A stretch of 63,993 nucleotides of DNA, the filler included, from Perkinsus olseni (taxonomy: Eukaryota): the NCBI GenBank assembly GCA_013115125.1. It is 6 parts of 6 records of this genome, joined end to end, with 100 filler letters (N's around TTAATTAATTAA, not from the genome) between each part and the next. Parts side by side here need not be neighbours in the genome. Positions count along the whole stretch, not along the records: positions 44,392 to 55,360 come from JABANN010000849.1; 5 more parts are not named here. One strand, 5' to 3'. How positions within the stretch are numbered: position 1 is the stretch's first letter; every line of letters begins with the position of its first letter. A program made the translations under genes and the position numbers. Shown here piece by piece: positions 11,013 through 59,574 of this stretch. The notes under the pieces were generated by a model that was given only the letters and a program-made list of their open reading frames with translations, was not told where the DNA came from and searched no databases.

Positions 11013-11112
11013 NNNNNNNNNNNNNNNNNNNNNNNNNNNNNNNNNNNNNNNNNNNNTTAATTAATTAANNNNNNNNNNNNNNNNNNNNNNNNNNNNNNNN
11101 NNNNNNNNNNNN
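11013..11112. other. Artificial contig linker
   Basis: N44-TTAATTAATTAA-N44. Confidence 0.99.
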
Positions 11113-22120: not shown

Positions 22121-22220
22121 NNNNNNNNNNNNNNNNNNNNNNNNNNNNNNNNNNNNNNNNNNNNTTAATTAATTAANNNNNNNNNNNNNNNNNNNNNNNN
22201 NNNNNNNNNNNNNNNNNNNN
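22121..22220. other. Artificial contig linker
   Basis: N44-TTAATTAATTAA-N44. Confidence 0.99.
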
Positions 22221-24749: not shown

Positions 24750-25304
24750 GCAGCAGATGGCAGCACCACTATAGTGGTTGTGTAGTACATTTACTTGCAT
24801 CATCACAACTACTGTCGCTTGGTAGGGAGGAGACACTTTGGTGGACTAGGAGGAGACTTGGAAACGGATAAGCTGTTTTGAGTTTGAGTATAAATTGGCA
24901 TGGGGGTGTTTCAATAGTGGAGCACGATCGGACCTCGTCAGTGTAATGCATCTCGCTCGTTCCACATAACGTGCCTTGGTTTATCGAGGCTCACATTAGT
25001 GTGATGCATAGACATCGGCGATGGCGAGTAGGGGTGTGCCCGTCATATTTCCACGCTCGATTAGTCTACTAGCGGATACTCTCAATGTAGCTGCTTCTGC
25101 ATGGCTCATAACTTAGTATTGGACTGTACGTTTTTGATACTGAGTTCGAGTGGCGGCCCTAGCGCCTGTAAGGCCAGGCCGCGACTAATGAGGCAAGAAG
25201 AGCAAGATACTGAGTTCATTTTTGAGGATGTCGAATTGACAAGCTGTAAGCACTGTAGTCCGTTACTTGACTTGGTTCGAGTAAGTAGTTTGTGATTATA
25301 TAAT

Positions 25305-26907
25305 ATGGCTGATCGTAATGGATGTCATGGGAAATATATTTTATCTATAGACCAAGGGACTACCTCTTCACGGGCCATCATCCTTGCTGAGGATGGTCAG
25401 GTGGTACACGTCAAGGGGTATCCTTTCGAACAGAAGTATCCGAATCCAGGATGGTGTGAACAGGATCCATATGATATATTACAATCAACGATAAGATCAA
25501 TTAATGAGGTGTCAGAACTGATAACACCTTATGGTTGTATAACAGCAGTTGGTATAACTAATCAACGTGAAACAGTTATAGCATGGGACAAGGTAACTGG
25601 TAAACCATTATACAACGCTATTGTATGGCTTGATTTGAGGACCTATGATACTGTAAAGGCCCTTACAATGGATGGTAGTAAAGACAGATTCCGTCAGATT
25701 ACTGGATTGCCAATCAGTACTTACTTTACTGCTCTCAAGATAAGATGGTTATTGGATAATGTCGACGATGTTAGTGATGCTGTGAAAGAAGGAAGATGCC
25801 TTTTTGGTACCGTTGACTCATGGCTGACATATAATCTAACAGGAGGGCCTGATAATGGTGGAATACATGTTACTGATGTTACCAATGCGTCGAGGTAAGG
25901 AGAGTCGCTTTAGTGAAGTCTAGGTTGATATGTGTAGGTACATGCTGATGGACCTTGAGAAACTCGAATGGTGTGAAGATATCTGTAATGAATTGGATAT
26001 CCCTTCAGATACACTACCAACCATAGTACCTAGTTGTGGTCATATTGGTACAATCACCAACTCAGAGTCCGAGAACAGGGATCACCAATTGCATCCCTCT
26101 CTCTTCAACGTACCTATAACAGCGATACTGGGTGATCAGCAATCGGCCTTACTGGGTCATGGGTGTGTGAAAGTTGGTCAGGCTAAGTGCACATATGGTA
26201 CAGGCTGTTTTATGTTAGCCAACACCGGCGATAAGATTATACAGTCATCTTTTGGTCTCCTCACGACAGTGGCATTCAAGCGTGAAGGGGGTCCCGTGTA
26301 CTATGCTCTAGAAGGCTCAGTAGCCATCGCTGGTAGAGCTGTACAATGGTTACGTGATCAACTGGGTGTAATAGAATCAGCACCAGAGGTAGAGGAGTTA
26401 GCTAGTACAGTACCAAATACAGGAGGGGTTACTGTAGTACCGGCATTCTCTGGTCTATTCACTCCACACTGGCGTCCTGATGCTAGAGCTGTTATTGCCG
26501 GTATGACCTTGGGTACTACTAAAGCACATATATGTAGAGCAGTACTGGAGGGTGTAGCATTACAAGTGGTGGATGTTGTGAGGGTCATGGAGCGTGAGTT
26601 AGAACATCCATTATCTGAGTTTTATGCTGATGGTGGTATGACTGGTAATAATCTCTTGATGCAGATGCAGGCAGATTTCCTACCAAAAGAGATATATCCT
26701 GCCATGATGGCCGAGACTACTGCCTTTGGTGCTGCTTATGCTGCTGGTTTGGCTGTTGATCTATGGAAAGTGCCGTTACAAGAGCTGATAGCCAACCTAG
26801 GAGGTCATAGAAAGATAGAACCACACCCAGCAGCATTGGAGAGAAGGAAGGCTATAAGGAGGAGATGGAATGATGCACTGCAAAGATCTCTAGGTCTTGA
26901 GGAGTAA
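25305..26907 (+). CDS. GK: Glycerol kinase (intron 25895-25937)
   Basis: IDQGTTSSR, GITNQRET, YNAIVW, TDVTNASR, GDQQ, TYGTGCF, YALEGS and DGG motifs. Confidence 0.95.
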
Positions 26908-27280
26908 GCTAGAGACTCAGCACGCTATGCTACTCACTGCTACAACATCACAGGTACTGCCCTCTGCCTGATGAGTAGCAACAGCAGCAGCAGACAATCT
27001 GCTAGCATGATCGGTAGTGGCCGTCAGTTAATTTTTATGTTTAAGCGCCAATCGCATGGTGGTCGTGACTATTTTGTAGTTTCTTGCTCGTCCTAGTCCT
27101 GGTGTGCTGCTGCTGCTGAGTTAACCATGCTCAATTCCATCGTCGTACGTGCAACTCGCCGTGCTTCGCCGCCTCGATCGCATGTGGCATTCTAGCTAGG
27201 GTAAGAGCAGGTTACCGTCAGACTTTCTTTATCATAAGGCTCATTGCCTCTCCCTCCCGTCCATCCCTCGTACGTAACAC

Positions 27281-27283
27281 ATG

Positions 27284-27315
<32 letters not shown>

Positions 27316-28942
27316 GTCCGAGTATGTTCTCGCTATCAATGTGGGGACCACATCGGCTAGGGCAGCCCTTTTTGCAAAGGACGCTCGATTGGCCCATTCT
27401 AGACAGTACTTTTTTGAACAGAAATATCAGAATCCAGGATGGTGTGAACAGGATCCATATGATATATTACAATCAACGATAAGATCAATTAATGAGGTGT
27501 CAGAACTGATAACACCTTATGGTTGTATAACAGCAGTTGGTATAACTAATCAACGTGAAACAGTTATAGCATGGGACAAGGTAACTGGTAAACCATTATA
27601 CAACGCTATTGTATGGCTTGATTTGAGGACCTATGATACTGTAAAGGCCCTTACGATGGATGGTAGTAAAGACAGATTCCGTCAGATTACTGGATTACCA
27701 ATCAGTACTTACTTTACTGCTCTCAAGATAAGATGGTTATTGGATAATGTGGATGATGTTAGTGATGCTGTGAAAGAAGGAAGATGCCTTTTCGGTACCG
27801 TTGACTCATGGCTGACATATAATCTAACAGGGGGGGCTGATAATGGTGGAATACATGTTACTGATGTTACCAATGCGTCGAGGTACGGAGATGCAGCGCT
27901 TCTCCTCGCCAGCGTTAGTATCCGTGCGATGACCTCGTGCCTTGTATAGATTGGCCAGTAAAGTCTGCTCAATGATTCATATTGTTTTCTCAGATACATG
28001 CTAATGGACCTGAAGACTCTTGAGTGGTCAGAGGAGGTATGTCATGCTCTTAACATACCCCTTGAGACGCTTCCCAAGATTGTACCGAGCTCTGGATACA
28101 TTGGTACCATATCCTCCGCCCTTCATCCTGCAATATGTAATGTCCCTATAACTGCTATGCTTGGAGATCAGCAATCTTCATTAGTCGGTCATGGTTGTAT
28201 ACAGGAAGGGCAAGGGAAGATGACGCTCGGTAAGGGTTGCTTTATGCTGGTCAATACAGGTCAGCATATTGTACCCTCATCATTCGGTATATTGACTACG
28301 GTAGCATTTCAAAGGAGTGGTGGTGATGTCTACTATGCGCTCGAGGGTTCGATCGCGAACACCGGTCGAGCAGTCCAGTGGTTGTGTGAAAAGTTACAGC
28401 TCATAGACACCCCGGATGAGGTAGAGAAGTTGGCACTCACCGTTCCCAACACTGGTGGAGTTACATTCGTGCCGGCCTTCACCGGCCTCTTCGCACCATA
28501 TTGGCGTCCTGATGCACGAGCAGTTATTACTGGTATGACATTAGGCACAACGAAGGCTCACATATGTCGGGCAGTACTGGAGGCAGTGGCTCTTCAAGTA
28601 TTGGATGTGGTGGAGGCCATGGAAAAGCATATTGGCCATCCATTGGAGATGTTCTATGTGGATGGTGGTATGACCAAGAATGATCTATTCCTGCAGATGC
28701 AGGCTGATACCCTGGTCAAGGAGCTATACCCTGCTAACCTATTTGAGTTTACCTCTTTTGGTGTTGCCTACGCTGCTGGGTTAGCGGTTGATTTCTGGGA
28801 TAATGTGCCGCTACAGAGTCTCATCTTGAACCTTGGTGGTCATAGGAAGGTGGAGCCTCACTCGGAGGCATTGACACAGAGAAAGGCTGTCAGGCGAAGA
28901 TGGAACGATGCGTTGCAACGCTCACTCAACTTGGAAGAGTAA
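27281..28942 (+). CDS. GK: Glycerol kinase paralog with altered active-site motifs (intron 27883-27993)
   Basis: Full-length FGGY fold, but INVGTTSAR replaces IDQGTTSSR and TLGKGCF replaces TYGTGCF; poly-Ser N-terminus. Confidence 0.9.
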
Positions 28943-33218: not shown

Positions 33219-33318
33219 NNNNNNNNNNNNNNNNNNNNNNNNNNNNNNNNNNNNNNNNNNNNTTAATTAATTAANNNNNNNNNNNNNNNNNNNNNNNNNN
33301 NNNNNNNNNNNNNNNNNN
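33219..33318. other. Artificial contig linker
   Basis: N44-TTAATTAATTAA-N44. Confidence 0.99.
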
Positions 33319-41775: not shown

Positions 41776-43258
41776 TCACCCAACTGTGAACAACATGACC
41801 TGCCCGCGGGAATTGCCCATGGCCAGCCAGTCGTCCTTAGCGGCAACCGACTCAACTCGGCCGAGGTTACTGATGGTCGTGGGCCAGTTGGAGTAGGTCT
41901 GCCTCGTCACAGCGTTGGTCGCCCGGATAGCCGAGTTCTTAGCATTCGTCGCTCCCAGAAGAATCTTACCTCGAAGCGAGCACACCGCAGTCAGAGGATT
42001 CACCAGAGACTCGCAGACAGTCCTAAACCCTCCAAAACCGCCACCCTCCTTGATGTCGACAACGTCCAGAGTGCCACTAGAGGTACCAAAGGCCAGACCA
42101 TGGTCGAAGGTCGCTCCACAGGTAATAGAGACAGCAAGGTCGTCATGAACCTTAGACAAGCAGCGTCTCGTTCCCACGTCCCACTCGTAGACGTTCGCTC
42201 GCCCATCCGCACATATCAGATGGTCGTTCGTCGGATGCCACATGACAACGCTTGCCGGTGCGCCGAGCTGGAACTTGGCCGCCAGCTTCCGGCTCCTCGT
42301 GTCCGAGACGAGGACCTCCCCACCTTGAGTGGCCATCGCGAAAGACTTGCCGCCAAGCGCGGAGATACTCCACAGTTTCCTGTCCTTTCTCGAGGTCCCG
42401 CAGGCGCCCTTCACGGCCGTCACAGACTGCTTGTTGACGTCGAAGAGACAGACCGTTCCCTGTGGACCAACAGCAGCCACCTCATTGCTGTTGAGAAAGG
42501 CCGCAGACTCGATCTGGAAGTCCTTCAGCTTGGCTGAATACACCTCGGTATTCTTCTTACCGTCGACCTTGTTCAACCGGAAGGAGTCACCGAGCCTGTT
42601 GGCCGAGAGTAGAAGATCTTCTCTCGGATGCCATGCGAGAACGGTGATCGGACTGTAGCCACCCGAGTGCTGCTGTCTCCCACAGACATTAGTGACCCGT
42701 CTGATGGCCAGCTTGGCCGGATCAGAGGCCTTATTGAGGCTGGGGATGAACTCATCGTCAGAATCCTCATCTTCCACAGGCTCGGCCTGAGCCCAGTCCT
42801 GGCGGCCGCTCATCTGGGTGAATCGGTCTCGCAGTCGGGCCTCGTACTCTCGGACGGAGACCTTCACTTCGTCTCGACTAGAACGAAGCTTCTTGAGGCG
42901 GTTGCGGCTGGTCAAGTCGACTTCAGCGTTGGACGCATCATCATCCTCGTCCACCTGCAAAAGCACACAGGTGGCGAATGGCGAAGTATCCAAGGTCGAT
43001 CATAGTATCCGACAAAAACCTACCCATGCGGGCTGTTGAGCAGGCTTCTCAGCATCACTTTGAGTCACTGCGTCCGCTGTCCTGAAATAAAAAGTGGTCG
43101 AACGAAACCTTAGAGGTGATTTTTCCACCGAATTTTCTGTCACCAGGCGGGCTAGTTCAATACAACGTTACTCGGCGCTATGCAATGTCTATGCAAATTA
43201 CAGTGTCGCCGCTAGAGGCGATGATCCCCACCCTCTACTACCTTTCCCTTTTTGTCAT
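41776..43258 (-). CDS. UTP18: U3 snoRNP WD40 protein UTP18
   Basis: Spliced PAW/VDEDD, NRLKKLR, YEARLRDRF, KVDGKKN, TYSNWPT and LAMGNSRG; start exon inferred. Confidence 0.85.
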
Positions 43259-44291: not shown

Positions 44292-44391
44292 NNNNNNNNN
44301 NNNNNNNNNNNNNNNNNNNNNNNNNNNNNNNNNNNTTAATTAATTAANNNNNNNNNNNNNNNNNNNNNNNNNNNNNNNNNNNNNNNNNNNN
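44292..44391. other. Artificial contig linker
   Basis: N44-TTAATTAATTAA-N44. Confidence 0.99.
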
Positions 44392-45580
44392 CTCGTCGAG
44401 AGGGTTGCCAGTGACAAGTCCCTGAGTGGTGTATAGAGGAGAGAGATCGACCTTACTGTTAAGGAGGTACCTCGGTGTACGGGCTTGGGAAGGAGAGCCA
44501 AGAAGGTGAGGGAGCAAGGGCATGCCTTCTAACAGAGTGTCGTCTCTGAGGAACTCGAATATGGGCTTCTTGGCAAGGAAGTAGTCGGGAGACTCGAGCA
44601 TGCAGTACTCCTCACCCAATTGTCATCCCCAATTGCGACAATTTCCCCAGATTGTCGCTGGAGAGGCTCAGACCGACGAGGCCACCTTTCGACTTATCGC
44701 CCCCCCACTTTCTTGATGTCGAACTCTTCAACCGTGGCGTAAACCAGAGTCTCTGGATCAGCATCGCCTCTAGCGGTACCGGTACTCGTTCGAAAGAGCG
44801 TAACCAATGATCCGTAGATAAGATGCGAGCCCAATGTAAAATCCACTGGCCTTGGACAAGAAAACGTGAACTGAACGTAAAGGTTGCCACTCGAGGATAT
44901 AAGGAATGGGCGTCTTGTAGTCCTCACGTGCTCGTAGCATACCGTCCTTGATGTCGCCTCATAAGCCGAGGGTATCCCCATCGCTGGGCACAGGGCCTCC
45001 TTGAGGGGAATAACGAACTCTTGCCTCAAGCAGTGGTAATGTGTGGCCCGGTACAGAAGGAGATCCTGTTCATTCTTAGCATCCCACATGCTGTTGACTC
45101 TGTTCACCAGCCGAGGTTTCTTTTTGTTATAAGTTGGCCCCTCAACGATCTCCTCCAATTGGGGTAGAAGGTTAGCGGCTTTCATGAGCTTGTCACAGAG
45201 CACAACGTCGACGTCCTCAGGCTTGCCCGGCTTCACCATTCCGCGCAGCTTCCTCGAAGCGCCGCCTTCTTTATGAAAAACGAGCTGCTTCATTAGCAGC
45301 TCTAACTGCTCACTATGACCCCCAATGGCTCGAGCACGGGCAGATATCACTTCTGCTGATACCAAGCCCGCTGACTCAGGATCCCAGCGACAAACCTCCA
45401 CCATGACCTTCGTATACTCAATCAGCTGCTGAGACAGACGAACCTTGGCCACGTAATCAGAAGTGGCGACAACCAAGGTGGCGCTCACGGTCTGAATGAG
45501 TTGGTAGAACTTAGCTTTTTCGAAAGCATCCCCAGCCATCACCACTGCGGAGATGAACACACGCATGCCCTCGGGTGTAT
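44392..45580 (-). pseudogene. ZNFX1: ZNFX1-like helicase copy B, N-terminal region downstream of the insertion
   Basis: YRATHYHCLRQEFVIPLKEAL, HLIYGSLVTL and MLESPDYF resemble the ZNFX1 pre-helicase region; frameshifts at the G-run (~44700) and at a short duplication (~44625). Confidence 0.8.
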
Positions 45581-45821
45581 CACGACTCGTACACCGAAAA
45601 CTCGTACACTTTCATTTCGTACACGACTCGTACACTGAATACTCGTTCACCCCTTGGATCCGTACACCGTCATTTCGTACATTTGAAACTCGTACACATA
45701 ATACTCGTACACATAAAACTCATACACGTAAAACTCATACACATAAAACTCATACACCGTCAACTCGTACACGAGCACGACTCGTACACTATGCTGCTTG
45801 AGTCGCATTTTTGGGCCGCAC

Positions 45822-48800
45822 TGTAGAACGCAACCAAGGTAAACGTGGTAGATAAGTTGGGAATCAATGGTATGATAGGAATTGGCTAATGGTAGACAGT
45901 ATGTAGCTTAATAGTAGCGCTCGCCCTGACACAACTCATAGTCTTGTGGTATAACATCTCCTCCTCTTCGAAAAAAAATAGGATATATTCTAAAGCAGTT
46001 TAATATCGTAACCGTGGACAATCACAATATTATCATCTGATTTCTTCACTTGGATTCTATTATCTCCTAATTGCTGTACGACAACGGCAGGCGTCCACCG
46101 CCTTTGAAGTTTAGGAACATTTCCTGAAATCCTGACCAACACATTAAGGCCTGGTTTCAACTGAGTCTTAGTCGGAGACTTCATTATCTCTTGTAAATAG
46201 CTATATGATTCATGACACTCTATGGGAACTTCAGGGCGCATACTCGGGGAAAACTTGAAAATATTAGTATGTGGACTCTCTCCTCGCCGTTGAGGAGTTA
46301 CATTGTACTGATAACAAGCTCTATTTGCCAAATTGAAAAACGTCGCAGTAGAGGCGTTCCCTGTATCAATATGTGCTCGTAAATATTCATTCAAGTATCT
46401 ATGCCATCGTTCTATCTTTCCATTACAAAAACTAGCATGAACTGGATTCAGCAGATGCACTATATTCATCTTCTCCAAGAATGCTTCTATCTCTTTTGAT
46501 TTATACTGGGATCCATTATCCGTGTGCAAGACTAACGGTCGTCGATGGAACGTATCGAAAATTGATTGCAAAAAATTTCGCACATCAATTGACGTTGGCA
46601 TATTCAGACATGGTCGGACGACTACATAATCTGAATAGCTATCTTTCGCTGTTATAACATAATAACGGCTCGATCCACCTGATTGACTGTACGGTCCACA
46701 GATGTCGGAATGAATCCTATCCCAAGGTCTCGGCGCTGTTTTTATCGAAACTAACGGGACCAACGGTTTCTTATCGTTTGGGAAAGCCTTCGCCATGGAA
46801 CACGTTTGGCACTTATAAAGATTACATTCTGATGCCAAACCTGGCATATCAACCCATCTCTTGAGTTTGGCGAATTGTGCAGCTTTACCTTCATGGTCAT
46901 GCGTCAGTGTCAATAACTCCTGTGCCTTATCTCGAGGGATGCTAATACGTTTGTCGTGCACCTGAAATTCACTTAACCATAGCTTCAACTTTTCTGACCG
47001 TTCTTTCTCCTCATTTTCTATACGTGTTGCTGCTAGCACTTGTTGACCATCCTCTTCGCTCTTAGTAGCGATGTCACGTAGTGTTTGGATGAATTTCTTG
47101 GATAACCGTGGATGCAATCTCGATGGCACATCTGCCTTATTATTTTCTGAGGACACATAGCTCACATTAAGGGTTATATTAAATTTCTCGACTATGTCAT
47201 CTATTAATTGCAGTCTGCCTTCAATTGCTACCTTACTCATTCCTTTTATATTTTGCCATTTTCTTTCCTGTTTCCGTGTCAACCAGTGTTGTAACGAAAC
47301 ATTATCTACCCGTAAGTGAACTTCTTGCTTCTTAATATTATATGCTTTCATGTAATCCACCACAAGTTCCATACCTCTGAGCGCTGCTTCTGTTTCAGCT
47401 ATATTTATATGTCTCCTACAATTTTTTGGTCGTAACCATGCTCTATCCTCCACTACTACACCATCAAAACACAATACCGCAGCTAATGCTACAGAACTTG
47501 AATCCGTAAACAGCTCCCACTTCGATACCGGATTTACGGACCATACTCCCTTTACTGGATCCTCCTTTTTGACAACCTGTGCTAATGAGACCCATAATTC
47601 CTTGACTTCATCATTCAAAGGGTAATCTTCATTCTCACAATTTTTCGATCTTTCTACTGCGCTTATTCTTGTGAGCATCGCGGCAGTTACTCGTAACCAT
47701 CCCGCTACGGGATATACTGGCGTTAATCTTCCTATGTACGAAGCTAATTCCGCTTTCGTTTGTGGGATTTTTTCTAGTATGTCAGCTATTGGCTTTCCTC
47801 TACTCCAAGTTCCGTCCTCATTTATGTGTATTCCTAATACTGTCGAACCGTATAATGGCTTAGGAGGTTTTATGTCAAACGAGTTGTTCGCGAGTTCCTT
47901 TTTCACTATAGGAAAGTCTTTTTTATTCACTACCATGTCATCGACAAATTTGTAGACTTTTCGCTTGGTTGGTATTCTTTCTATTATATAGTCCAACGAT
48001 TCATCAAGCGCTTTACCGCTGATATTACAACCGAATCCGGCTCTAGTCATTACATACATGTTGTCTTTACCTTTCAAATGAGGGAATCTTACGCATTGAT
48101 AATACGTTTGTTCTTTCTTAACTCGGATCATCATGTAAGCGTGTTTTATATCTATGGCGAGTGTCTCATTCGGGTCTAGCGTTCTCCAAATCCTTATCAT
48201 TTTTTGGCAGTTGATTGGTTCTCCGCTTGAATTCGGCATACTTTCTATTCGAGAGTTGAGCCAAGTGTAATCAAGTACGACCCTCACTGGTGTAGTTCTA
48301 CCTAGTGATACAACTGGCATCGTCGTTATATACCCTTTCACTTTACACCGCGGAATTTTCACGAAATATTTCCTATCTATCATATCCTGTACGGACTTGT
48401 GAAATAATTCTAGTTCATGTGGGGTTAACTTTTTCATTTGTTCTTCATAATGTGGTGGTCTATATACCATATCTTCCGGTTTTTGCTTCCATATCCATTC
48501 TACTTCCCACATATACTTACTGTCATCTTCATCATTCTTTTTCCGTCTTAATATAATATCTTTGTTCTGAAGGACTACATTATCGACATGCTGAACCGAT
48601 GTTTCCTCGCTGCGCTTTCGTTTCATTACTCTTTGATTTTCTCTCGTTTGCTCCACTGGATCGCCTCCGCTTACCATACCGGCTATCCACGATCCCATAC
48701 TGTTAACTTTCAACGTTAACTGTCCACACGCTCTCAACCAATCCATACCGAACAACGCCTGTATTTGAGTACTTCCCATGCTCAAAATGCTTTCCTGATT

Positions 48801-50368
48801 GACTATCCATGGTTGAACTCCTACTCCGCACAATCTCATTTCGAAACTATCAACTGCTTGATATGCAGTAACTGATCCTGTGAGCGTTGTCAACTTAAGT
48901 TTTTTCTGGGCTTGAGGGATCAAGGAAATACCTGTAGTATCACCAATATATGACGCAACTGTTTCACTGACTACCGAGATCGTACTACCTGTATCGATCA
49001 TCGCCAAGAACTGTTTATTCTCACTCTTTTTACTTGGGCGATCACACCTGAGAATCACGGAGAGATAACGGCTCTCTTGGGTGCAAAGCTCGCCTTCAAT
49101 CACTACGTTCTCAGTGGTCTTATTATTACGCACATTCGAAGGACACTGTGCAGACCTGTGCCCTCGTCCATTGCATGTAAAGCATCTGATGGACCTTTCT
49201 CCTTTTCCTATGGTCTTATAACGGAGACCTTTGCCCTTTCCATACCAAAACCCTTTGCCTTTTCCTTTCGCCCCTTTAGCTTTTCCTTTGCCTTTATACC
49301 CGTAAGCAATAGCAGACACATGCTGGGCTTCATCTTCTGGGGGCTTAGCAACAACAAATCCTTCTGATAACGTCAAACAGCCTTGTACTATATCTCGCCG
49401 ATTCTGCCACAATTCGCGCCACTGTGCGCGAATGGCGGCAAGACCGGGTAAGTCTTGCGGAATTCCATTCCAATATTGTAAGCAGGCAGTCGCATTGACC
49501 CACGTACGGTCTGGACGCACACTCGGGGGTATGGCTGCTGACGCGAGCCTTTGTAGCTCCGTAAGGTACTCTCCAGGAGTTTCACCAACCTTCATCCTCC
49601 TTGTGGTTAACTCCCGCCAGGCCGCAAAAGAACATGGGCCATACCTGTCCAGAAGGACTTTTTTAGCTTGCTTGTACGCAGTCTTGTCATCAATACCACT
49701 ACCAACCTTGACATTCGCACTTACAGTATTATAAGCCGACCCTCTCAGGTTCAACTTCAATAGAGCAAGGCGCTTGTTTACCGGTAGAAATTGTGATAGC
49801 ATCTCCATAGACTCTTCAAATTTCTGTAACCATTGTACCACATCTTCGCCATCATGACCACCGGAGAAAGGGGTCGACATAATGTTGTAGTTCTTCAACG
49901 AACCATTTAGACCATTAGTAACCGATGATGTTGAAGTCAACGACGGCACGCTTTTACCATCATTAGAGTCACTCTTCTGATTAGTTGATGTGCTGCTGGA
50001 GCTCTTATCTTTTGGCACCTGCTCCTCAGTGTCTCCATCGGCAAGATGCTGTTCACGTAGGGAGTCTTCTGTTCTTGCTTTACCATCATCGCCGTCCTCG
50101 ACGACATCTTCTTGTGTTTCTGCTTGCTCACGCTGTTCACTCTCCTGCTGCTCTTCTTCCGGAGTCGCGACTGCTATGAAGTTCTCGAAATCACCAAGCT
50201 CGAGGTTTAAGTCGTCAAAGGGTCTGGGCACCATGTAGAACGCAACCAAGGTAAACGTGGTAGATAAGTTGGGAATCAATGGTATGATAGGAATTGGCTA
50301 ATGGTAGACAGTATGTAGCTTAATAGTAGCGCTCGCCCTGACACAACTCATAGTCTTGTGGTATAACA
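45822..50368 (-). mobile_element. Intact Ty3/Gypsy-order LTR retrotransposon (4547 bp)
   Basis: Identical 135-bp TGT...ACA LTRs (45822-45956, 50234-50368); CGCAC TSD; PBS-like TGGTGCCCAGA; PPT gaagaggaggaga. Confidence 0.97.
45990..50234 (-). CDS. Single-ORF Gag-Pol polyprotein
   Basis: CCHC knuckle CFTCNGRGHRSAQC; protease IDTGS; RT IDIKHAY/FVDD; RNase H FTDSS..HINIAE..VDN..NKAD; integrase HSDICGP/HTDNGSQY/NGKIERW. Confidence 0.96.
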   Translation of the reverse strand: MVPRPFDDLNLELGDFENFIAVATPEEEQQESEQREQAETQEDVVEDGDDGKARTEDSLREQHLADGDTEEQVPKDKSSSSTSTNQKSDSNDGKSVPSLTSTSSVTNGLNGSLKNYNIMSTPFSGGHDGEDVVQWLQKFEESMEMLSQFLPVNKRLALLKLNLRGSAYNTVSANVKVGSGIDDKTAYKQAKKVLLDRYGPCSFAAWRELTTRRMKVGETPGEYLTELQRLASAAIPPSVRPDRTWVNATACLQYWNGIPQDLPGLAAIRAQWRELWQNRRDIVQGCLTLSEGFVVAKPPEDEAQHVSAIAYGYKGKGKAKGAKGKGKGFWYGKGKGLRYKTIGKGERSIRCFTCNGRGHRSAQCPSNVRNNKTTENVVIEGELCTQESRYLSVILRCDRPSKKSENKQFLAMIDTGSTISVVSETVASYIGDTTGISLIPQAQKKLKLTTLTGSVTAYQAVDSFEMRLCGVGVQPWIVNQESILSMGSTQIQALFGMDWLRACGQLTLKVNSMGSWIAGMVSGGDPVEQTRENQRVMKRKRSEETSVQHVDNVVLQNKDIILRRKKNDEDDSKYMWEVEWIWKQKPEDMVYRPPHYEEQMKKLTPHELELFHKSVQDMIDRKYFVKIPRCKVKGYITTMPVVSLGRTTPVRVVLDYTWLNSRIESMPNSSGEPINCQKMIRIWRTLDPNETLAIDIKHAYMMIRVKKEQTYYQCVRFPHLKGKDNMYVMTRAGFGCNISGKALDESLDYIIERIPTKRKVYKFVDDMVVNKKDFPIVKKELANNSFDIKPPKPLYGSTVLGIHINEDGTWSRGKPIADILEKIPQTKAELASYIGRLTPVYPVAGWLRVTAAMLTRISAVERSKNCENEDYPLNDEVKELWVSLAQVVKKEDPVKGVWSVNPVSKWELFTDSSSVALAAVLCFDGVVVEDRAWLRPKNCRRHINIAETEAALRGMELVVDYMKAYNIKKQEVHLRVDNVSLQHWLTRKQERKWQNIKGMSKVAIEGRLQLIDDIVEKFNITLNVSYVSSENNKADVPSRLHPRLSKKFIQTLRDIATKSEEDGQQVLAATRIENEEKERSEKLKLWLSEFQVHDKRISIPRDKAQELLTLTHDHEGKAAQFAKLKRWVDMPGLASECNLYKCQTCSMAKAFPNDKKPLVPLVSIKTAPRPWDRIHSDICGPYSQSGGSSRYYVITAKDSYSDYVVVRPCLNMPTSIDVRNFLQSIFDTFHRRPLVLHTDNGSQYKSKEIEAFLEKMNIVHLLNPVHASFCNGKIERWHRYLNEYLRAHIDTGNASTATFFNLANRACYQYNVTPQRRGESPHTNIFKFSPSMRPEVPIECHESYSYLQEIMKSPTKTQLKPGLNVLVRISGNVPKLQRRWTPAVVVQQLGDNRIQVKKSDDNIVIVHGYDIKLL

Positions 50369-50436
50369 CGCACGCTGAGAGCAATGCCGGAGCGAAGGAA
50401 GTAATATTATCTATAGAGAGCGAATTGTTTGCGCCA

Positions 50437-50530
50437 ACCTGTGAGTAAATATTCAGTAGTGTAAGTGGTATGGAGGTTAAGGTAACGGGTTACCAATCCA
50501 AAGGTCGTGGGCTCGATCCTATGTACAGGT
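50437..50530 (+). other. tRNA-like segment inside the TIR element
   Basis: acctgt/acaggt closing stem, A-box-like tggtatggagg, and aggtc-gtggg-ctcgat-cctat T-arm-like region. Confidence 0.45.
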
Positions 50531-50594
50531 CCGGCGTTGCAGGGAGGAGATAAATCGCGAAGAGTAGGCGGCAGAGCGCCGGCGGAGCCGGCAC

Positions 50595-50649
50595 GAAAAT
50601 TTTTTAGGCAAGTCGCGGAGCCGCTCCGCGACTTGCCCAAAAAATTTTC
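50595..50649. repeat. Palindrome, 27-bp arms (1 mismatch), 1-nt centre
   Basis: gaaaattttttaggcaagtcgcggagc-c-gctccgcgacttgcccaaaaaattttc. Confidence 0.95.
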
Positions 50650-50916
50650 ACTGGGTGTACGAAATGACGGTGTACGAGTTGAAAGTGGGTGTGTGTATGA
50701 AATGACGATGTACGAGCATTATGTGTACGAGTGTTCTGTATGCGAGGTTTATGTGTACGAGTATTTTGCGTACGAGTTTTACATGTACGAGTTTTCAGTG
50801 TATGAGTTTTCCGTGTACGAGTCCTCAGTGTACGGGTATTCGGTGTACGAGTCAGAGGTGTACGAGTATTCGAGACATGAGTCGAAAATGTACGAGTTTT
50901 CGGTGTACGAGTCGTG

Positions 50917-51316
50917 AACATCCCATGCCCTCGGCGTCGATGATCCCCAGAAGGTCCCTGATCTTCTCGCGGAGGCCGTTGCAGACCTTCAAGCATAGAT
51001 CGGGATCTTCCTTGTCTAGGGTTCGACGTAGTATAAGCGTTAGCTCAGACGATGATCGTATCCTCGTCGCAGAGTTCGCGATAGCACGCTCCGAGAATGC
51101 ACTAGTGTTCCCATACATGCCCGCGAAACCGCAATGGCCCTTGCCATTTCCAGAAGAACCACGACCCTTAGACGGCAGACGACCACCAACACCCTTGCCC
51201 GGGAGACGACCACGCCCTTTACCGCCACCCTTACCTTTCCCTTTGGCAGTGCCGGGTTTCCCGGCAGCCGGGTTCCTCGAAGCTGAAGACGCTCCGAAGC
51301 GTTTGGGCGGAGGCAT
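50917..51316 (-). pseudogene. ZNFX1: ZNFX1-like copy B, first coding segment (KG-rich N-terminus)
   Basis: MPPPKRFG...DAEGMGC joins in frame to YTPEGMRVF once 45581-50916 is removed. Confidence 0.75.
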
Positions 51317-51607
51317 GAAGCACGAGCAAACTGGGGAGCAGGGGGATGACTAGAGCACAAATCCGGGAAACACTGAATGCTCTCACATGTACCGTCGAAC
51401 GACACTTATGCCGTTTTCTCGCTACCGGGACCCACCACTTTGAGAAACACGTATCCCAGCAGACTAAAAGAAATGAGAATGGATGATTCGACAGGCGCTG
51501 ACAATACGGTTCCTTAGTCAACCGTTCGCAACTCGCAGATGAAGAAAATTGTTGATGATCGAGCAGCGACTGTCCATCAAGGACAGGCTCAGGAATCCAT
51601 CGTTGGC

Positions 51608-54600
51608 TCAGGCCCCTCCCCCCATACCTGGCCAGTTCGGCCTTGCACTGACGCCGGTGAAATCTGCCACGAAGGTGTTCCCAGCAGCAGAGCTGTGATT
51701 GGCACCACCGATAACAGCTCCGCATTCAGGACAAGCTGCGGCCGTCATGGCCCCACCACAATCGGCAATGAAGTAGGGGTGACCATTAGGGCAGGCGAAC
51801 CAGCGTCCAGCAGCTGCACCCCAACCGTCAGATGACATAGCTTCGTTGATGGCGTGACGTTCTTCCAAGGTCACTTCCTGTCGGAAGGCTTTTAATAGTT
51901 TCCCCTTCACCTTGGCCAGGAGTGATAGTTGAGTCTTGACAATGTTGTTGTACCTGAGATAGCATGATGCTCAAAACTACACCGCTGAGACCAAAGAGCA
52001 ACTCAACGCGACGACGAGGATGACTAGACAGTCAACGCACTCTAACAGTTTGAGCAGATAACGGCCACCGCCTTCAGAGTTGCAGAGTACTCGAGCCTCA
52101 AAGTAGGCTCCCGTTATCGTGCCAATCCGACGAGCCTGTCTTCGTGTATCGGCTTCGATGCTAGGGAAATCAAGTATGCCGTCCCACCTTGGAGCGGTAA
52201 AGATCGTCTTCTTGCACGTAGGGCAGGACCTCAGCTGGATAGCCTTATGTTCACCCTTGGAGGCATCATAGGTCATGTACCTGTTAGAGAACACAGATGA
52301 GGCCTCACCCTATAAGGGATCGAGATTCGGCTTACGTATCAAGGCCATCGACGAAGAAGGTATGTCCACAGTCGGGGAGCATGTAAAGCCTTGAGCCGTC
52401 CTACAGTGCCGAGCCGATAGTGTCCAACAAAATGGTGTCCTCGACCTCGGGGAAGCAGCGAGGGCAGGTCGGGCATGGCTCACCGCACAGTCCTTGGCAG
52501 GGATGACCACACTCCAGTTCGAGCGTGCAGTGGGCGTTGCAGCGAGGCCTCTCACAAGGCTCATGGCACAGCTTCTCACACTTATGATGAGGGCACCGCC
52601 AAAGGCAGGGCTCACGACACGGTATACAGACCTCGCAGCAAGCTTTGCTGCAAGCATTACCGTGAAGGCACCGCATACCGCACTCGCGTTCACAGAGCTT
52701 CGTGTGGGGCTCTCCACACGCCTCGTTACAACTATGCCCACATGCCAGCTCTTGATCGCAAGCTTCCTCACATTTAACCTTGGTGTGGTCATGAGGAGGG
52801 GAGCAGAATTGAGGGCAGGGGTGGCCACAGGGTAAGACCACTTCACACTGTCTTCTGCATTTCTTCACATCATTGCAGATCTGCTCCACGTCATGACCAC
52901 AGGGAGCCTTCACCGTACGCTTATAAGTGCACTGCAAGTCAGCAGACTTGGACTTGTAACAGTGTGTCGACAACTCGTGGCCGCAGGGGAGACGTACCGG
53001 AACCATCTGCAGGCAGCGCCTCTCTATTGGATCATCTCGCATGAAGCAGCGAACGTCCTTCTGATGGCCGCAGGGAAGACCGACCGACACCAACGCCTCA
53101 CACGGGGTCTTGCAGATGTCCATCGGCTCAGCATCTGCTTTAGTGCACTTGAAGCAGAGGTTCGGGCATTTGTGGCTGCACCCTGCCGGTCTGGGCCGAT
53201 TGCAAGGCCTGTCGCACGTTACCATCTCATGATCAAAGACATGACAATTGAGTGGGCACCGATGACCACAGGCCGGGAGTAACATCCTACAGGGCTCGCG
53301 GCAGCCACCGTCACGAACGCAGTAGAAGTCATTCGGATCGGAGATGTTCTCGAGGTTAGCCGGATGGACACGACACTTCAGGGTCAGTGCCGGCCCAATG
53401 CGACCTTGCTGACGTAAGCATTGCAGCACAGCCTTCCAGCTCTGTGAGGGATCGAACATCTCGGAGTGGCCCAGAATATACAGTCCCTCCTTCGCTCTAG
53501 ATAGCGCCACGATGACCCGATTCTCGATACCAATAAATCCGATCTTCTTGGCCTCGTTCGAGCGGACCAGCGACAAGATGACCACTTTGTTTTCCTCACC
53601 CTGGTAGTCGTCGATGGTAGCCACCCTCACCCCGACGACATCTTGCTTTTTGTTTGAGCGGATCTCGGGGTTCAAGTAGCTGCGCATGAGACGCTTCTGG
53701 CCAATGTAAGGAGTCAGAAGGGTGATGTCTTCCGGCTGATACTGCTGAGCGGACCAGATAGAAGGCAAGACTGGCCGCGAATCTCGCTTCATAGTCGTTC
53801 TTCTTGGAGGTGCCCTCAAACGACTGTTCGGATTGGCGATGGTCGAGGAAGTAGACGTCAGTCGCCACGCCCCCGACTCTGTCATACTTCTTGACCCTCT
53901 CGTGGTCGATAAGCCCATCCACGTAGAAGTGCTTCACCAATTGGCTGGCCTCAGGCCGCATACGGAGTTGAGTGGAGAGCTTGGCGAAGGGGACGTTGAG
54001 GTTGATGAGTCTCTCGAAGAGGGAGATGTCGAAATGGTTCTTCCGGCATAACTCGAAGGCGTTTATCTTCGGTCGTAACTGCTGATGGTCACCAATCATC
54101 ACCACGTGCTCCAACTTGGGAGAGGAGAGACTAGAAATAAGCTGACATTCTAGCAGCTCCCCAGCCTCTTCTATGATGACCACTCTCGGCGCCAGACGAT
54201 GCACCAGATCTCTATTGAGGGCTGCGTAGGTACTGGTCATGCCAATCAGCCTCGACCCGCGGCATGCTCGGAAAAGCAAAGCCTTGCGATACTGCATGTA
54301 GCCCTTGCCCGCCTCTTCGCCCTTCCTATAGATGTCTCTGAGCTTCGCCTTCATTGGGCCTTCGAGGGCGGAGCCAACAGCCTCAATCAATCCCTGGCGG
54401 CTACGCCGAGACGGAGCTGCTTGGTTCACACAGATGTTGCCAGCCTCGTGAACGGCCACATGACAAGCGGCCGCCACCACTGTAGTACCGAAAGATACCT
54501 CCAGCCTCTTGCGGATCTTACGCTGAAAGCTAGCCGCCATGCTGAGCTCGTCCCTCCAAGAACGGTCGATCTCCAGGGCATCCACGTTATCATCATCAGG

Positions 54601-55287
54601 ACGCTCCACAGCAGCGGCCACACGGGCACCGGCAGCCTGATCGATTCGTAGACCAACCCTAGCGGCCCGTCTTCTGTCACCCTCACCAAAGATCTGTTCC
54701 CCAATCATGCGTTCTTGCTCGACGAGATCGAGGAGATCCAAGTCGAGCTCGTCAATGTCGATTTCGGTGTTTCTGCGAGTGGGAGTGCCGAACTCGAACA
54801 AGTGATCGACCAGCCGATCAACCCCGGCCTCCATCTCCTCGGACAGGTCCCTCCTCTGGCGTTCCGGTAAACCCTCGAACGCTTCGTATCCGCGGGATGC
54901 CTTGCCAGGGTCGAACCGGTTGGAAGTCTTCACTCTGTGCTTGACATCGAACCCGCGCTCGTTCAACCAGGCCTTCTCGAGACCGGCCATCTGCCTCTCC
55001 GTCCCATCCAACCAAATGCGCAGCGACTCCATCGCAAACTCGGCAGCATAATGGCCAAGTCGAGCGAAGCTCATCTTCCAACCAACGGGTGACAAGATAC
55101 GCTGGAAGAGGCTGAAGGGCATGTAGGCTAGGAGGCAGACCAGTTGAGCGTCACCACCTTGATAGAGGGCGGCCACTGAGTTCAGAGTACGACAGGTGGA
55201 CTCCAGCTGATCTTTGAAATCCTGACGCCGCTGGTAGTCTTCGCTGTTCTCCCTCATCTTGGCACGGACATGACATTCCTGGAGAGG
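51608..55287 (-). pseudogene. ZNFX1: ZNFX1-like helicase copy A, C-terminal half
   Basis: SF1 motifs IIEEAGE, IGDHQQLRP, SLFERL, QLRM, TIDDYQGEE and VALSRA; NF-X1 Cys repeats; RZ finger WFACPNGHPY. Frameshift at ~53748 and in-frame TAG at 52401-52403. Confidence 0.9.
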
Positions 55288-55360
55288 GTTATACCACAAG
55301 ACTATGAGTTGTGTCAGGGCGAGCGCTACTATTAAGCTACATACTGTCTACCATTAGCCA
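55288..55360 (+). mobile_element. Third (partial) LTR of the same family, opposite orientation, at the contig end
   Basis: gttataccacaag...ccattagcca is the exact reverse complement of LTR 45883-45955. Confidence 0.92.
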
Positions 55361-55460
55361 NNNNNNNNNNNNNNNNNNNNNNNNNNNNNNNNNNNNNNNN
55401 NNNNTTAATTAATTAANNNNNNNNNNNNNNNNNNNNNNNNNNNNNNNNNNNNNNNNNNNN
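55361..55460. other. Artificial contig linker
   Basis: N44-TTAATTAATTAA-N44. Confidence 0.99.
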
Positions 55461-56841: not shown

Positions 56842-59574
56842 CTCAAGTATTTCTTTGCTTAGTTGTCCTATGGCCCATAGGCTATGGGGGATCGCTTTCC
56901 ACAGTCCCAACGTTGCGGGGCCAAAACGAACCGACGTGCCGCAACAATGTTATCTCCATTTAACAGCTCGCCTTTCGAAGGGCCGTCTCGAAGTCGTGCA
57001 TGGCACAGTGGCGCCAACTCAGGCTTGGATGCTGAGGCTCTCAGCGTAGACCTGCCATGCAATTCTCGGTATTGATTCGTCGGGTTGCCGTATAACTACA
57101 TGTACGATTGCTACTGTAACTGAGTACACTCAGTACCCAATAGCGTCCCATGACAGCCCCTCAACGTTCTTGTATACTGTGCGAAGAAGAGCGCGCCAAA
57201 CGCATCGTCGCCGAAGCCAAAGTGGCGAAGATGCAGGTGCGGACCTAATTGGCTTCACGGGTGTGCCTCTCTCGCTATCGCCTACGAGACGTACATTCCT
57301 AGAACTCAGGGCAACTGCTAGATCGGTGGTATTAACGGAACCTTTTCATGTTCGTCAGAGGGCGTATATCGGTTTACTCACGGAGCTAGAGGCCCTCGGA
57401 AGGAGATCCGAAGAAGGCTCGATACGTGAGGGTCGCGCCACTGAGGCTGCCGCTATGACGAGGGAATGCCTGCTCGCTTAGATTCGGGAGGGCCTGCGGA
57501 TAACGATGGGAGCGGGGATGCTACGTGGGTTCGATTGCCGTGTGAATTCGACGCCATTTGCATGCAGGAAGGAATCTGTGGAGCTGATGCAGTACCTCGA
57601 GATCGTCTTGGATTGGATCCTCAAGGACTTCGTAGTCGGCTTGAATCCTCTCCGCACGTTGACTGTGACGCTGTTGTCGCATTCTCTCCATATTCAAGAG
57701 TAGAACGGCGTGAGGGGACGGTCAGGTGGACCTGCGGAAGAAGGCTCTTGCTAGGCTGAACACCTTGAATCCGAGAAGCAAGGCCTTGCCTGGTGAGTAC
57801 CGGACCGCTGACGGCTCCTGACGGGTCTTTACATTCTGTGAAGTGCTCGAACCTGGGGAAGGATGCTGGATCTATTTATCCAGCTGCTGCCCTCATCTCG
57901 GGTCTGTCACGGATCTACGGTATTGAATATGAACATTATGCCGCTGCGTGTTGCCCGACAGCTAGCAGGCGTCGTCGAATTCCAGAGAGAAAGCTCGAGT
58001 TTCAGGATCCCGAGGCAAAGGAAACGCAAGAGAGTATCTTACGAATACACTCGAACGGTCATTCCCTCAAGCAGACGATCATTCGGAAAGTGAGAGTGCG
58101 ACCTTTAAACTTCGCTTCGCCGTCGACGAGCGCGAACGCGATGTGTCCTGATGATCGCTCGCTACACATTCAGAAGGACACTGTGCAACCTGTGGACACC
58201 TCAGCGGCCTTGTTGTGGCAGCTAGCCACCTCCCCTCCCACACACACTAGGCGTTCTCAACGGGCTCCGTACCCGAATAGAACAATGACACGCTAATCAG
58301 GAATGCCGCCCAACGACAATGCCGTCGACTGAACACTCACCTTCCCATTGATATCAGATCCGAAGAGGCTACTACATTCAAGGCCGAGGAGAGCGAGCTC
58401 GCTAATGGCTGCGGTACCGTCGGATGGCCTTAGGAAGGGACCCAACTGGGAGAGCTCTCACAAACGAGTGGGCTATGGCCGTGACGGCCCACCCGCGGTG
58501 AGCCTGCATACCATAAATTCTCTATCTCGATGGAGAGGATGGCAGGCTTTATCACAGCCGTCGAGCCCGGCAACTAAATGGACTTGGACGACCAGCCAGA
58601 GCCACTCCGTTCCAAGCTCTTCTCGAGATGCACAGAAAAGGTGCCGGAGTTGACTGCTCACTTCGAGCTCCCGGTTTGTTCAGTTCCGAGCCCCACCGAA
58701 GGGTGAGGAGATCTTCTTCGGAGGATCGTCGGGCTTCCAGTGTGAGACTCTAGCCGTGTGGCTGTTATTGTGCGCGACTCTGTGAGCCTCTGGAGATCCC
58801 AAGGTTACGCTTGCTTGCCCATCCGCTGGGCGGTTCTCGTTCCGTACTGGTCGTCATACCCTGGCTCTTCGCAGGACGCGGTGAGGGAACCGACGAGCCG
58901 GCGGCTGTGGGCGCTCCAGCGCGAGCATGATGACGCTCAAGTGCATCATGAGAGGCATCATATTACAAGAGGTGGGGGCACGACGCGCGGGTGTAAGAAG
59001 TCCTCAGGCAACGTACGAACATACCTGCTGGAACTCCCTGGCATCTCTCTTGCTCAGCTTCCTTTTCATAGCCAGTCAGCTACAAACTTCAGGGCGGGCG
59101 ATCGAAGCAATCTTGCCGCAACGCTCGTCGTCAGGACCACCCAACGTACCGCAAGCGCGAGACTTCTCCAGCAAGCAACAATATACTGCTGCCGTCCGCC
59201 CTTCCCACTCGCGATCACAACCAAGTGAGCAGCGGACATTCCAACGGGGCTGACGTTTTCTATCCGGCGCTTGTCATTATTTACAACCAGATCATTTCAC
59301 AACTGTTCGAACAGGGTACGCCAAAACGCTAGCGCCTGCCAGCTCTTCGTGACTTTCGTGCATCGCGTTGCACTACCTTATCAGAACTCGCACTCCGAGG
59401 AAGAATACGTTTCTCTCAATCGCAGTTGGTCGTCTGGAGGGCAAAGTCGGCGGAGCTGCTGAGCCTCATTCCCCAGATTCCTTGTCATGATGCCGGCCCG
59501 TGACGTCTCTGCTACAGTTCTCAAGGGTCGTGTTGTTGTGGGTCAATCCACGGGTTGAGGTGTTTTGTACGTAA

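Follow-up and report, generated by a model that had tools for sequence, protein, structure and literature searches.

In proteins of the ZNFX1 family, an Upf1-like superfamily 1 (SF1) RNA helicase precedes a stalk of NFX1-type zinc fingers, and an RZ-finger E3-ligase module forms the C-terminus. In the fission yeast Schizosaccharomyces pombe, Hrr1 takes part in heterochromatin formation by RNA interference (RNAi) and in small-RNA silencing. In this work we studied a stretch of 63,993 bases of DNA from Perkinsus olseni (the window) and particularly one contig of it (44392-55360), on whose minus strand two genes of the ZNFX1 family, here named paralogs A and B, follow each other. As already stated in the first-pass annotation of the window, the host is an alveolate parasite, which lives on clam and abalone. 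We consider it probable that A and B are long-diverged tandem paralogs of the same orientation and that both are null alleles broken by transposons on the haplotype represented by this draft contig.

For human ZNFX1, the passages of a preprint dealing with the RZ finger (bioRxiv 10.1101/2025.10.14.682297) give C1849, H1853, C1860, C1869, C1872 and H1881 as the six zinc-binding and catalytic residues, and mention that the RZ domain was traced to unicellular eukaryotes such as choanoflagellates. A small-RNA role of ZNFX-1 of Caenorhabditis elegans is treated in part of another article (PMC9276528). ZNFX-1 and Hrr1 belong to the same helicase family as the Perkinsus genes, and their roles depend on RNA-dependent RNA polymerase (RdRP) and Argonaute partners. 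According to one section of a review, BLAST revealed Dicer-like proteins in P. marinus, and RdRP-related proteins were undetected there. No literature joining Perkinsus with ZNFX1 was found in the collection searched.

The P. olseni genes show the same module order as the human protein (PDB 9q9z), as far as the preprint describes it: an N-terminal ZNFX1/armadillo-type domain (seen in B), the Upf1-like SF1 helicase, a Cys/His-rich region that probably corresponds to the rigid zinc-finger stalk, and the C-terminal RZ finger (seen in A). They differ from human ZNFX1 in that two paralogs are present, each seen in part and both broken, and by strong divergence of the helicase insertion region. The immune role of the mammalian protein is not transferable to the Perkinsus genes.

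Two ZNFX1-type genes on a single contig

The window is composed of six contigs of approximately 11 kb each, which had been joined artificially by five spacers of the structure N44-TTAATTAATTAA-N44 (11013-11112, 22121-22220, 33219-33318, 44292-44391 and 55361-55460). The span 44392-55360 is exactly one P. olseni draft contig of 10,969 bp and, thus, both outer "breaks" of the gene pair are contig ends (Table 1). Paralog A had been described as the C-terminal half of a gene, which proved to be an artefact of the contig limit, because the contig stops 73 nt into a long terminal repeat (LTR). Similarly, since position 44392 is a contig end, the end of B at this place is not a truncation and has no biological meaning. 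The other sequence of the window around this contig represents unrelated neighbours.

The assignment of the genes to the ZNFX1 family was affirmed. Among solved structures, A matched best to ZNFX1 (9q9z_A, E 4.6e-42) with an alignment extending into the zinc-finger stalk, the next match being Upf1/NAM7 (6e-15). The helicase core of A gave Pfam matches to AAA_11 (31.2 bits) and, on two frames, to AAA_12 (32.3 and 86.5 bits; cut-off 27). The core of B lies off the contig; in protein P0123, which continues B, AAA_11 and AAA_12 scored 71.2 and 33.9 bits, respectively. The N-terminal ZNFX1/armadillo-type domain (PF25396) reached 19.4 bits in the open reading frame (ORF) of B, which is below the cut-off of 27, and this match ended at position 75 of the 107 profile positions, i.e., at a frameshift. 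In P0121, an undamaged allele of B, the same domain scored 30.2 bits. Pfam yielded no families on A between 53300 and 52404, where the NF-X1 finger model did not match either. The Cys/His region of A aligns to residues 1231-1450 of 9q9z_A and is 37-45% identical to ZNFX1-like proteins across the Cys/His repeats. The last exon of A (51953-51611) codes for the RZ finger (PF20173, ZnF_RZ-type; 82.6 bits, E 1.4e-23, cut-off 27), and its pattern C-x3-H-x6-C-x8-C-x2-C-x8-H has the spacing of the six human residues named in the preprint. An alveolate thus possesses the RZ finger in complete form, none of the six key residues being missing, and PF20173 also occurs in the chytrid and Mucor relatives. 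Some database relatives of the protein carry the name 'helicase required for RNAi-mediated heterochromatin assembly 1'. Judging by their family, intact Perkinsus members should be RNA-dependent helicases with an RZ-type ubiquitin-ligase output like that of ZNFX1.

That A and B are distinct genes is shown by the 317 residues preceding the helicase core, over which A and the B-type proteins P0123 and P0121 are only ~30% identical, in agreement with the initial description of two tandem paralogs. Collapse of identical copies was excluded because of this low identity outside the core and because B continues beyond the contig. The distance between the stop codon of A and the start codon of B, previously estimated at ~290 bp, was measured as 291 nt.

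Table 1. Coordinates of the features on the contig 44392-55360 and at its borders
Feature	Position	Strand	Remarks
Artificial spacer, N44-TTAATTAATTAA-N44	44292..44391		marks the low-coordinate end of the contig
Paralog B continued, ~codons 132-515	44392..45572	-	includes the ZNFX1 N-terminal domain; to contig end
Second +1 frameshift of B	44611..44639	-	coincides with a direct duplication of 13 nt (imperfect)
First +1 frameshift of B	44700..44706	-	in a G7 run; relatives still matched in the intermediate frame
Non-autonomous terminal inverted repeat (TIR) element	45573..50923		~790 bp without passenger; long imperfect inverted ends of 15-nt subterminal repeats
LTR retrotransposon nested in the TIR element	45822..50368	-	135-bp LTRs, 135/135 nt identical, TG..CA; intact 1435-aa frame
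Paralog B, first 131 codons	50924..51316	-	ATG 51316-51314, up to the TIR insertion; aligned to P0121 residues 140-292
A-B spacer, 291 nt	51317..51607	-	TGA of A to ATG of B; bridged by identical 3005-nt contigs of X1 and X2
ZNFX1-family paralog A, 3' part	51608..55287	-	helicase insertion region, AAA_11/AAA_12 core, Cys/His-rich region (putative zinc-finger stalk), RZ finger, TGA 51610-51608
Intron of A, 234 nt, GT..AG	51954..52187	-	spliced out in X7 contig
Intron of A, 55 nt, GT..AG	52281..52335	-	spliced out in X7 contig
In-frame TAG of A	52401..52403	-	within the conserved motif ...L(E/Q)xxxKLYxLP(D/E)CGHTF
Frameshift of A (2 nt short)	53745..53748	-	directly behind conserved YLVRS
LTR 5' piece, 73 nt	55288..55360	+	100% identical to the LTR family of the element in B, opposite orientation; abuts the 5' break of A
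Artificial spacer, N44-TTAATTAATTAA-N44	55361..55460		marks the high-coordinate end of the contig

Lesions of paralog A

The locus was compared with Logan contigs of the public sequencing runs X1, X2, X7 and X8, which belong to three studies, X1 and X2 being from two different ones; in 6 of the 20 listed runs, a fraction of 0.89 or more of the sampled words was present. That X7 is RNA is a guess only. X8 did not cover 44392-45489 and 50980-52077, nor X7 46222-48783, and these blanks were not taken as evidence.

ZNFX1-like homology of A extends over 55284-51611, corresponding to residues ~623 to the end of the 1792-aa P. chesapeaki relative P0004. It reaches right up to 55284-55287, and the LTR begins at 55288. 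This junction was also present in contigs of X1 (to 55317) and X7 (to 55303). The frame of A changes at ~53746, a site across which the outgroup protein P0005 aligns without gaps (residues 1277/1278) and at which all Perkinsus paralogs possess YLVR(S/T)QQY. A related contig of X8 carries two extra letters behind 53746; the contigs of X1, X2 and X7 agree with the window. At the in-frame TAG (52403-52401), E or Q is found in relatives, and the stop codon was recovered with 0 differences in the contigs of X1, X2 and X7. Thus, all three lesions reported for A by the first-pass annotation, the frameshift, the TAG and the LTR at the upstream break (55288-55360), were found. The rest of A is orderly and the exon phases of the two 3' introns fit.

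Both X1 and X2 yielded a contig of 3005 nt that was identical to 50898-53902 (0 differences) and bridged the edge of the TIR element, the start of B, the spacer, and the stop codon, the TAG and the frameshift of A. From X7 we obtained a contig of 3480 nt over 51489-55303, which lacked three GT..AG segments retained by X1 and X2, carried the frameshift and the TAG of A, and extended 16 nt into the LTR. Besides the two introns of A, it was devoid of a 46-nt GT..AG segment (55157-55112, minus strand) situated inside coding sequence that is conserved in B. As removal of this segment breaks the frame, it is probably due to cryptic splicing of a dead gene. A joint between 52841 and 53784 (side 21), which occurred in all four runs, was treated as likeness between zinc-finger repeats.

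A contig of X8 (6325 nt) differed from A by ~7%. Its match stopped at 55286 and was followed by 5081 nt more. Judging from its sequence, this contig is a relative of A without the LTR at that place. The 5' part of A should reside on another contig, beyond an LTR element.

The NCBI model of A is P0001 ('hypothetical protein FOL46_009384, partial [Perkinsus olseni]'), which maps exon by exon with 100% identity onto 55278-51611. The model dodges the frameshift and the TAG by an invented intron of 46 nt (53742-53697), one exon in the wrong frame, and further introns. Since the X7 contig is unbroken over 52333-55111 with 0 differences, these introns are not used. The deposited model is nevertheless the first of three points in favour of the idea that the genes are functional despite their lesions, by splicing around them, by programmed frameshifting or by read-through of the stop codon. 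The others are that A is transcribed, its two 3' introns being correctly spliced, and that Perkinsus mitochondria decode frameshifts, according to part of an article on that subject (PMC9550989). Against it, the X7 transcript keeps the sequence at both lesions, the model introns at 53742-53697 and around 52403 being unspliced, and the introns of P0001 delete conserved residues. Moreover, the allele P0121 and the relative in X8 exist without the extra or missing letters, and what stands next to A is an LTR instead of its 5' part. Mitochondrial-type programmed frameshifting was rejected, as the mechanism concerns mitochondrial genes and the locus, which contains spliceosomal introns and an LTR element, is nuclear. 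We therefore regard functional genes at this locus as very unlikely.

Lesions of paralog B

The TIR element splits B after codon 131. Downstream of the element, 45530-44392 aligns to residues ~132-515 of P0004. The two +1 frameshifts in this part are separated by 25 codons that match the relatives in the intermediate frame and, thus, are frameshifts rather than introns. Their sites were covered with 0 gaps in contigs of X1 and X2, the X2 allele having six substitutions. The earlier description of B as disrupted by a nested TIR and LTR insertion (~50923-45573 and 50368-45822, respectively) plus two frameshifts (44706-44700 and 44639-44611) was therefore accurate in every element.

B runs past the contig end, by 1389 nt in a contig of X1 and by 621 nt in one of X2. 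The first 70 residues of P0123, a protein of another P. olseni assembly, are 100% identical to 44601-44392 and are followed by the Walker A helicase domain. In X1 a joint from 54185 to 44392 goes back with a side of 38 nt. We infer that these 38 nt match the core and lie at the far end of a contig in which B is continued collinearly, because the distance expected from P0123 (~1353 nt) is close to the run-on of 1389 nt.

A contig of X7 (depth 288) joined the first exon of B to the interior of the nested retroelement (51233 to 49045, minus strand). The donor GT lies at ~51233 and the acceptor AG at ~49046; a 57-nt GT..AG segment (48985-48929) was also missing from this contig, which contained an Illumina adapter at 48878. 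It looks like a chimeric spliced transcript of host and transposon, driven by the promoter of B.

Since the small lesions of A were reproduced in contigs of X1, X2 and X7, and those of B in contigs of X1 and X2, i.e., in runs from separate studies, consensus errors were ruled out. On this haplotype both copies are disabled, as had been proposed, A by the loss of 2 nt, the TAG and the break at the LTR, and B by a nested insertion of 5.35 kb and two +1 shifts.

The transposable elements

Nested insertions of LTR elements into TIR elements, by which pseudogenes arise, are part of general transposon biology. The present insertions bear the same hallmarks: TG..CA LTRs, target duplications of 5 bp and 8-11 bp, a primer binding site (PBS), a polypurine tract and a gag-protease-reverse transcriptase-integrase polyprotein. 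They differ from the general case by very short LTRs (135 bp) and a divergent polyprotein.

The inverted arms of the TIR element are ~110-230 nt long with 76-78% identity. Its target-site duplication comprises 8-11 bp, the borders being ambiguous because of G and C runs, and the EGM codons of B are doubled on both flanks (residues 290-292 of P0121 align to both). Such a duplication would presumably fit hAT- or Mutator-like elements. No long ORF was detected in the TIR element outside the nested retroelement. The family is repeated in the genome, as in all four runs one to six contigs per terminus diverged exactly at 45572/3 and 50924. Other copies showed the site empty of the LTR element (joint from 45816 to 50369 in X2, X7 and X8). 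The ends of the element (50693-50920 and 45584-45800) are arrays of a 15-nt unit made up of GTACGAG and eight variable bases, and an internal near-perfect palindrome of 55 nt is located at 50595-50649. A stretch resembling a tRNA by eye was not confirmed, ARAGORN reporting 0 genes on the contig, and Rfam gave 0 matches to known RNA families there.

The nested LTR retrotransposon is flanked on both sides by the 5-bp target duplication GTGCG. It has a PBS starting with TGG and a polypurine tract ahead of the 3' LTR. The gag-protease-reverse transcriptase-integrase frame (50297-45990) is intact, with 1435 aa. Pfam matches were obtained to zf-CCHC, aspartyl protease, RVT_1 (weak) and rve, of which only the integrase reached the cut-off, and a PDB search with the element gave only two matches, both integrases (PFV integrase and a chain titled 'Integrase'). 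Its GC content is 0.41-0.44 versus 0.48-0.56 around it. By these features the retrotransposon is apparently young and autonomous. The 73 nt at the break of A are 100% identical to the LTR nested in B and, hence, the same LTR family lies at both genes, as first supposed.

In X1 the contig with the retroelement interior had a word depth of 82 compared to 80.5-97.7 for the unique flanks, which hints at a low-copy LTR family, although depth is not a copy number. Between 49041 and 50007 the element was seen in X1 only as a variant with six differences and ~2x the depth of the rest, the letters of the window being absent. This variant may be a second partial copy, perhaps the one at the break of A, or X1 may not be the exact source. 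In the five other contigs of the window (~53 kb) no LTR or TIR copy was detected apart from a match of 31 nt (58165-58194), a length expected by chance; these contigs are too small a sample for a claim of transposon enrichment. Concerning transposable elements and the genome assembly of P. olseni, nothing relevant was found among the papers listed.

Relatives of A and B in Perkinsus

Protein P0121 (P. olseni FOZ62_002319, partial) of another isolate is 92% identical to the N-terminal ORF of B and is its undamaged counterpart. It reads ...DAEGMRVFIS... through the site of the TIR insertion and ...VGGDKSKGG...KLSFGEEYCMLE... through the sites of both frameshifts. Given the existence of this undamaged allele, the decay of B is probably recent or specific for a haplotype or isolate. 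P0121 starts with an A-type RZ tail (88% identical), which is followed by B, and therefore the tandem order of A and B exists in that isolate too. The model itself is wrong in that it makes a single protein of the last two A exons, the spacer and B.

The core of A (195 residues) is 82-84% identical to P0123 and P0002 and 79-82% to P0003 and P0004 of P. chesapeaki. We considered gene conversion of the helicase core between the two genes and rejected it, the core being 76-84% identical to those of all full-core Perkinsus paralogs including P. chesapeaki. The contrast between the core and its flanks (30-56%) is due to constraint.

At least nine ZNFX1-like proteins of Perkinsus were among the matches listed (4/120, 3/4 and 5/17). 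A quick maximum-likelihood tree was calculated with 17 rows, comprising seven Perkinsus pieces cut to the region homologous to 55284-53743 and ten full-length outgroup rows; P0002 and P0125 were left out, and the tool warned of long outgroup branches. All seven Perkinsus rows fell into a single clade (SH-aLRT 100), which comprises about five lineages. A grouped with the pair P0122/P0128 (95) and B with its allele (100), while P0003 and P0004 stood apart. The clade shared with A and B includes FOL47_008679, FOL47_008681 and FOL47_000684 of P. chesapeaki, the first two of which are located on one 99-kb contig, as well as FOZ62_002319 with FOZ61_000184 and probably FOZ63_005792 of P. olseni. Unlike A and B, these relatives are open models, and A has no clear 1:1 ortholog among them (best 56%).

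On comparison of these sequences, the data are consistent with a modest lineage-specific expansion in Perkinsus, which fits birth and death of genes and is no proof of it. The suggestion of an expanded family undergoing birth and death thus stood in part: the single, well supported clade, its lineages and the undamaged allele of B agree with it, and the reservation concerns the extent, as the family is still small.

Evaluation of the proposed decay and of alternatives

The data are best explained by two tandem ZNFX1 paralogs that decayed on this haplotype. A was cut by insertion of an LTR element in the helicase insertion region, and in addition suffered the 2-nt loss and the nonsense codon. 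B was interrupted after codon 131 by the non-autonomous TIR element, which was later hit by a young, apparently autonomous LTR retrotransposon of the family found at A, and its two +1 shifts arose by slippage or duplication. The decay would be recent and tolerated through a redundant family, given the approximately five Perkinsus lineages and a polyploid genome. Bogema et al. 2021 reportedly found P. olseni to be polyploid and heterozygous. A and B are thus young pseudogene alleles of an ordinary kind, belonging to a gene family of small size, and do not yet speak for a special defence array.

Several points weigh against this explanation. All runs are represented by short-read contigs, none of which spans the whole contig, and the long-range structure, i.e., the sequence beyond the LTR and the number of haplotypes that carry each lesion, is unproven. 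X1 may be the source sample of the assembly. Both A and B are still transcribed in X7. An intact copy of A is so far hypothetical; the relative of A in X8 has the two extra letters, its state at the TAG site not being visible. The term 'recent' is based on the identical LTRs and the allele of one other isolate, and P0121, which differs by ~8% in protein, could be a diverged haplotype rather than the immediate ancestor. The helicase part of B is annotated as an open model of 667 aa (P0123) that starts at an internal Met just after the frameshifts, and a truncated B product may be made. Finally, we infer redundancy and relaxed selection.

Alternatively, the ZNFX1 family of Perkinsus might be a rapidly turned over array for RNA surveillance or against transposons, and an active LTR family might have disabled two neighbouring members of it by preference, either through targeted or local insertion or through selection on the side of the element for loss of a silencer. 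The expansion inside Perkinsus, with 7/7 rows in one clade at an SH-aLRT of 100, and the strong divergence outside the core (30-56% identity) are in line with such an arms race. So are the three insertion events on a single 11-kb contig, set against the lack of LTR and TIR copies in the five other contigs of the window, and a retroelement that looks active by its intact frame and identical LTRs and, by its depth in X1, possibly low-copy. Furthermore, ZNFX-1 acts in small-RNA silencing elsewhere, as treated in part of PMC9276528. On the other hand, literature linking Perkinsus to ZNFX1 was not found, draft-assembly contigs of 11 kb are biased towards pieces bounded by repeats, the intact allele of B means that its loss is not fixed, and RdRP was undetected in P. 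marinus according to the section of the review cited above. On balance we judge this alternative to be unlikely. Its most far-reaching form, in which an active and possibly low-copy LTR retrotransposon inserted twice into an adjacent pair of its candidate silencers, the insertions still being polymorphic among isolates, and in which the lineage-specific, tandemly arranged and fast-diverging family of ZNFX1 helicase/RZ-ligase genes serves in RNA surveillance against mobile elements, must be called a doubtful conjecture.

That a single gene was circularly permuted or chimerically joined in the assembly, with consensus errors as lesions, is suggested by an N-terminal piece lying downstream of a C-terminal one, by the nearly complementary extent of the pieces (~residues 1-515 and 623 to the end of P0004), by the contig ends on both sides and by one lesion in a G7 homopolymer, but it is hardly credible and was largely refuted by the junction of A stop, spacer and B start and the small lesions, which recurred, with 0 differences or 0 gaps, in independently assembled contigs from two studies (a third adding the lesions of A in a spliced, RNA-type contig), by the ~30% identity of A and B where they overlap outside the core, by the continuation of B past the contig end, by a 4.3-kb retroelement frame without frameshifts on the same contig, and by the gene model of the other isolate, in which B also follows the tail of A.

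Other features of the window

Any first-pass feature of the window that reads across or up to the spacers rests on an artificial join. Another contig contains two tandem genes of FGGY-family carbohydrate kinases on the plus strand (25296-26907 and 27278-28942), each of which is split over two long ORFs (FGGY_N and then FGGY_C). On a further contig, an open frame of 407 aa (41776-42999, minus strand) showed matches to WD40 beta-propellers, all of which were below the Pfam family cut-offs.

Significance

The analysis corrects the record, as the models deposited for this locus are artefacts: P0001 contains false introns and P0121 fuses the tail of A to the head of B. For P. olseni, the locus provides a record of an LTR retrotransposon that is young and apparently autonomous, and of a TIR element present in several copies. 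It also places ZNFX1 genes with a complete RZ finger in an alveolate; the passage of the preprint on this domain (10.1101/2025.10.14.682297) mentions its tracing only as far as unicellular eukaryotes, with choanoflagellates as the example. If the family indeed served in the surveillance of transposons or viruses, nature would have provided, in this polymorphic double knock-out, an experiment on that role.

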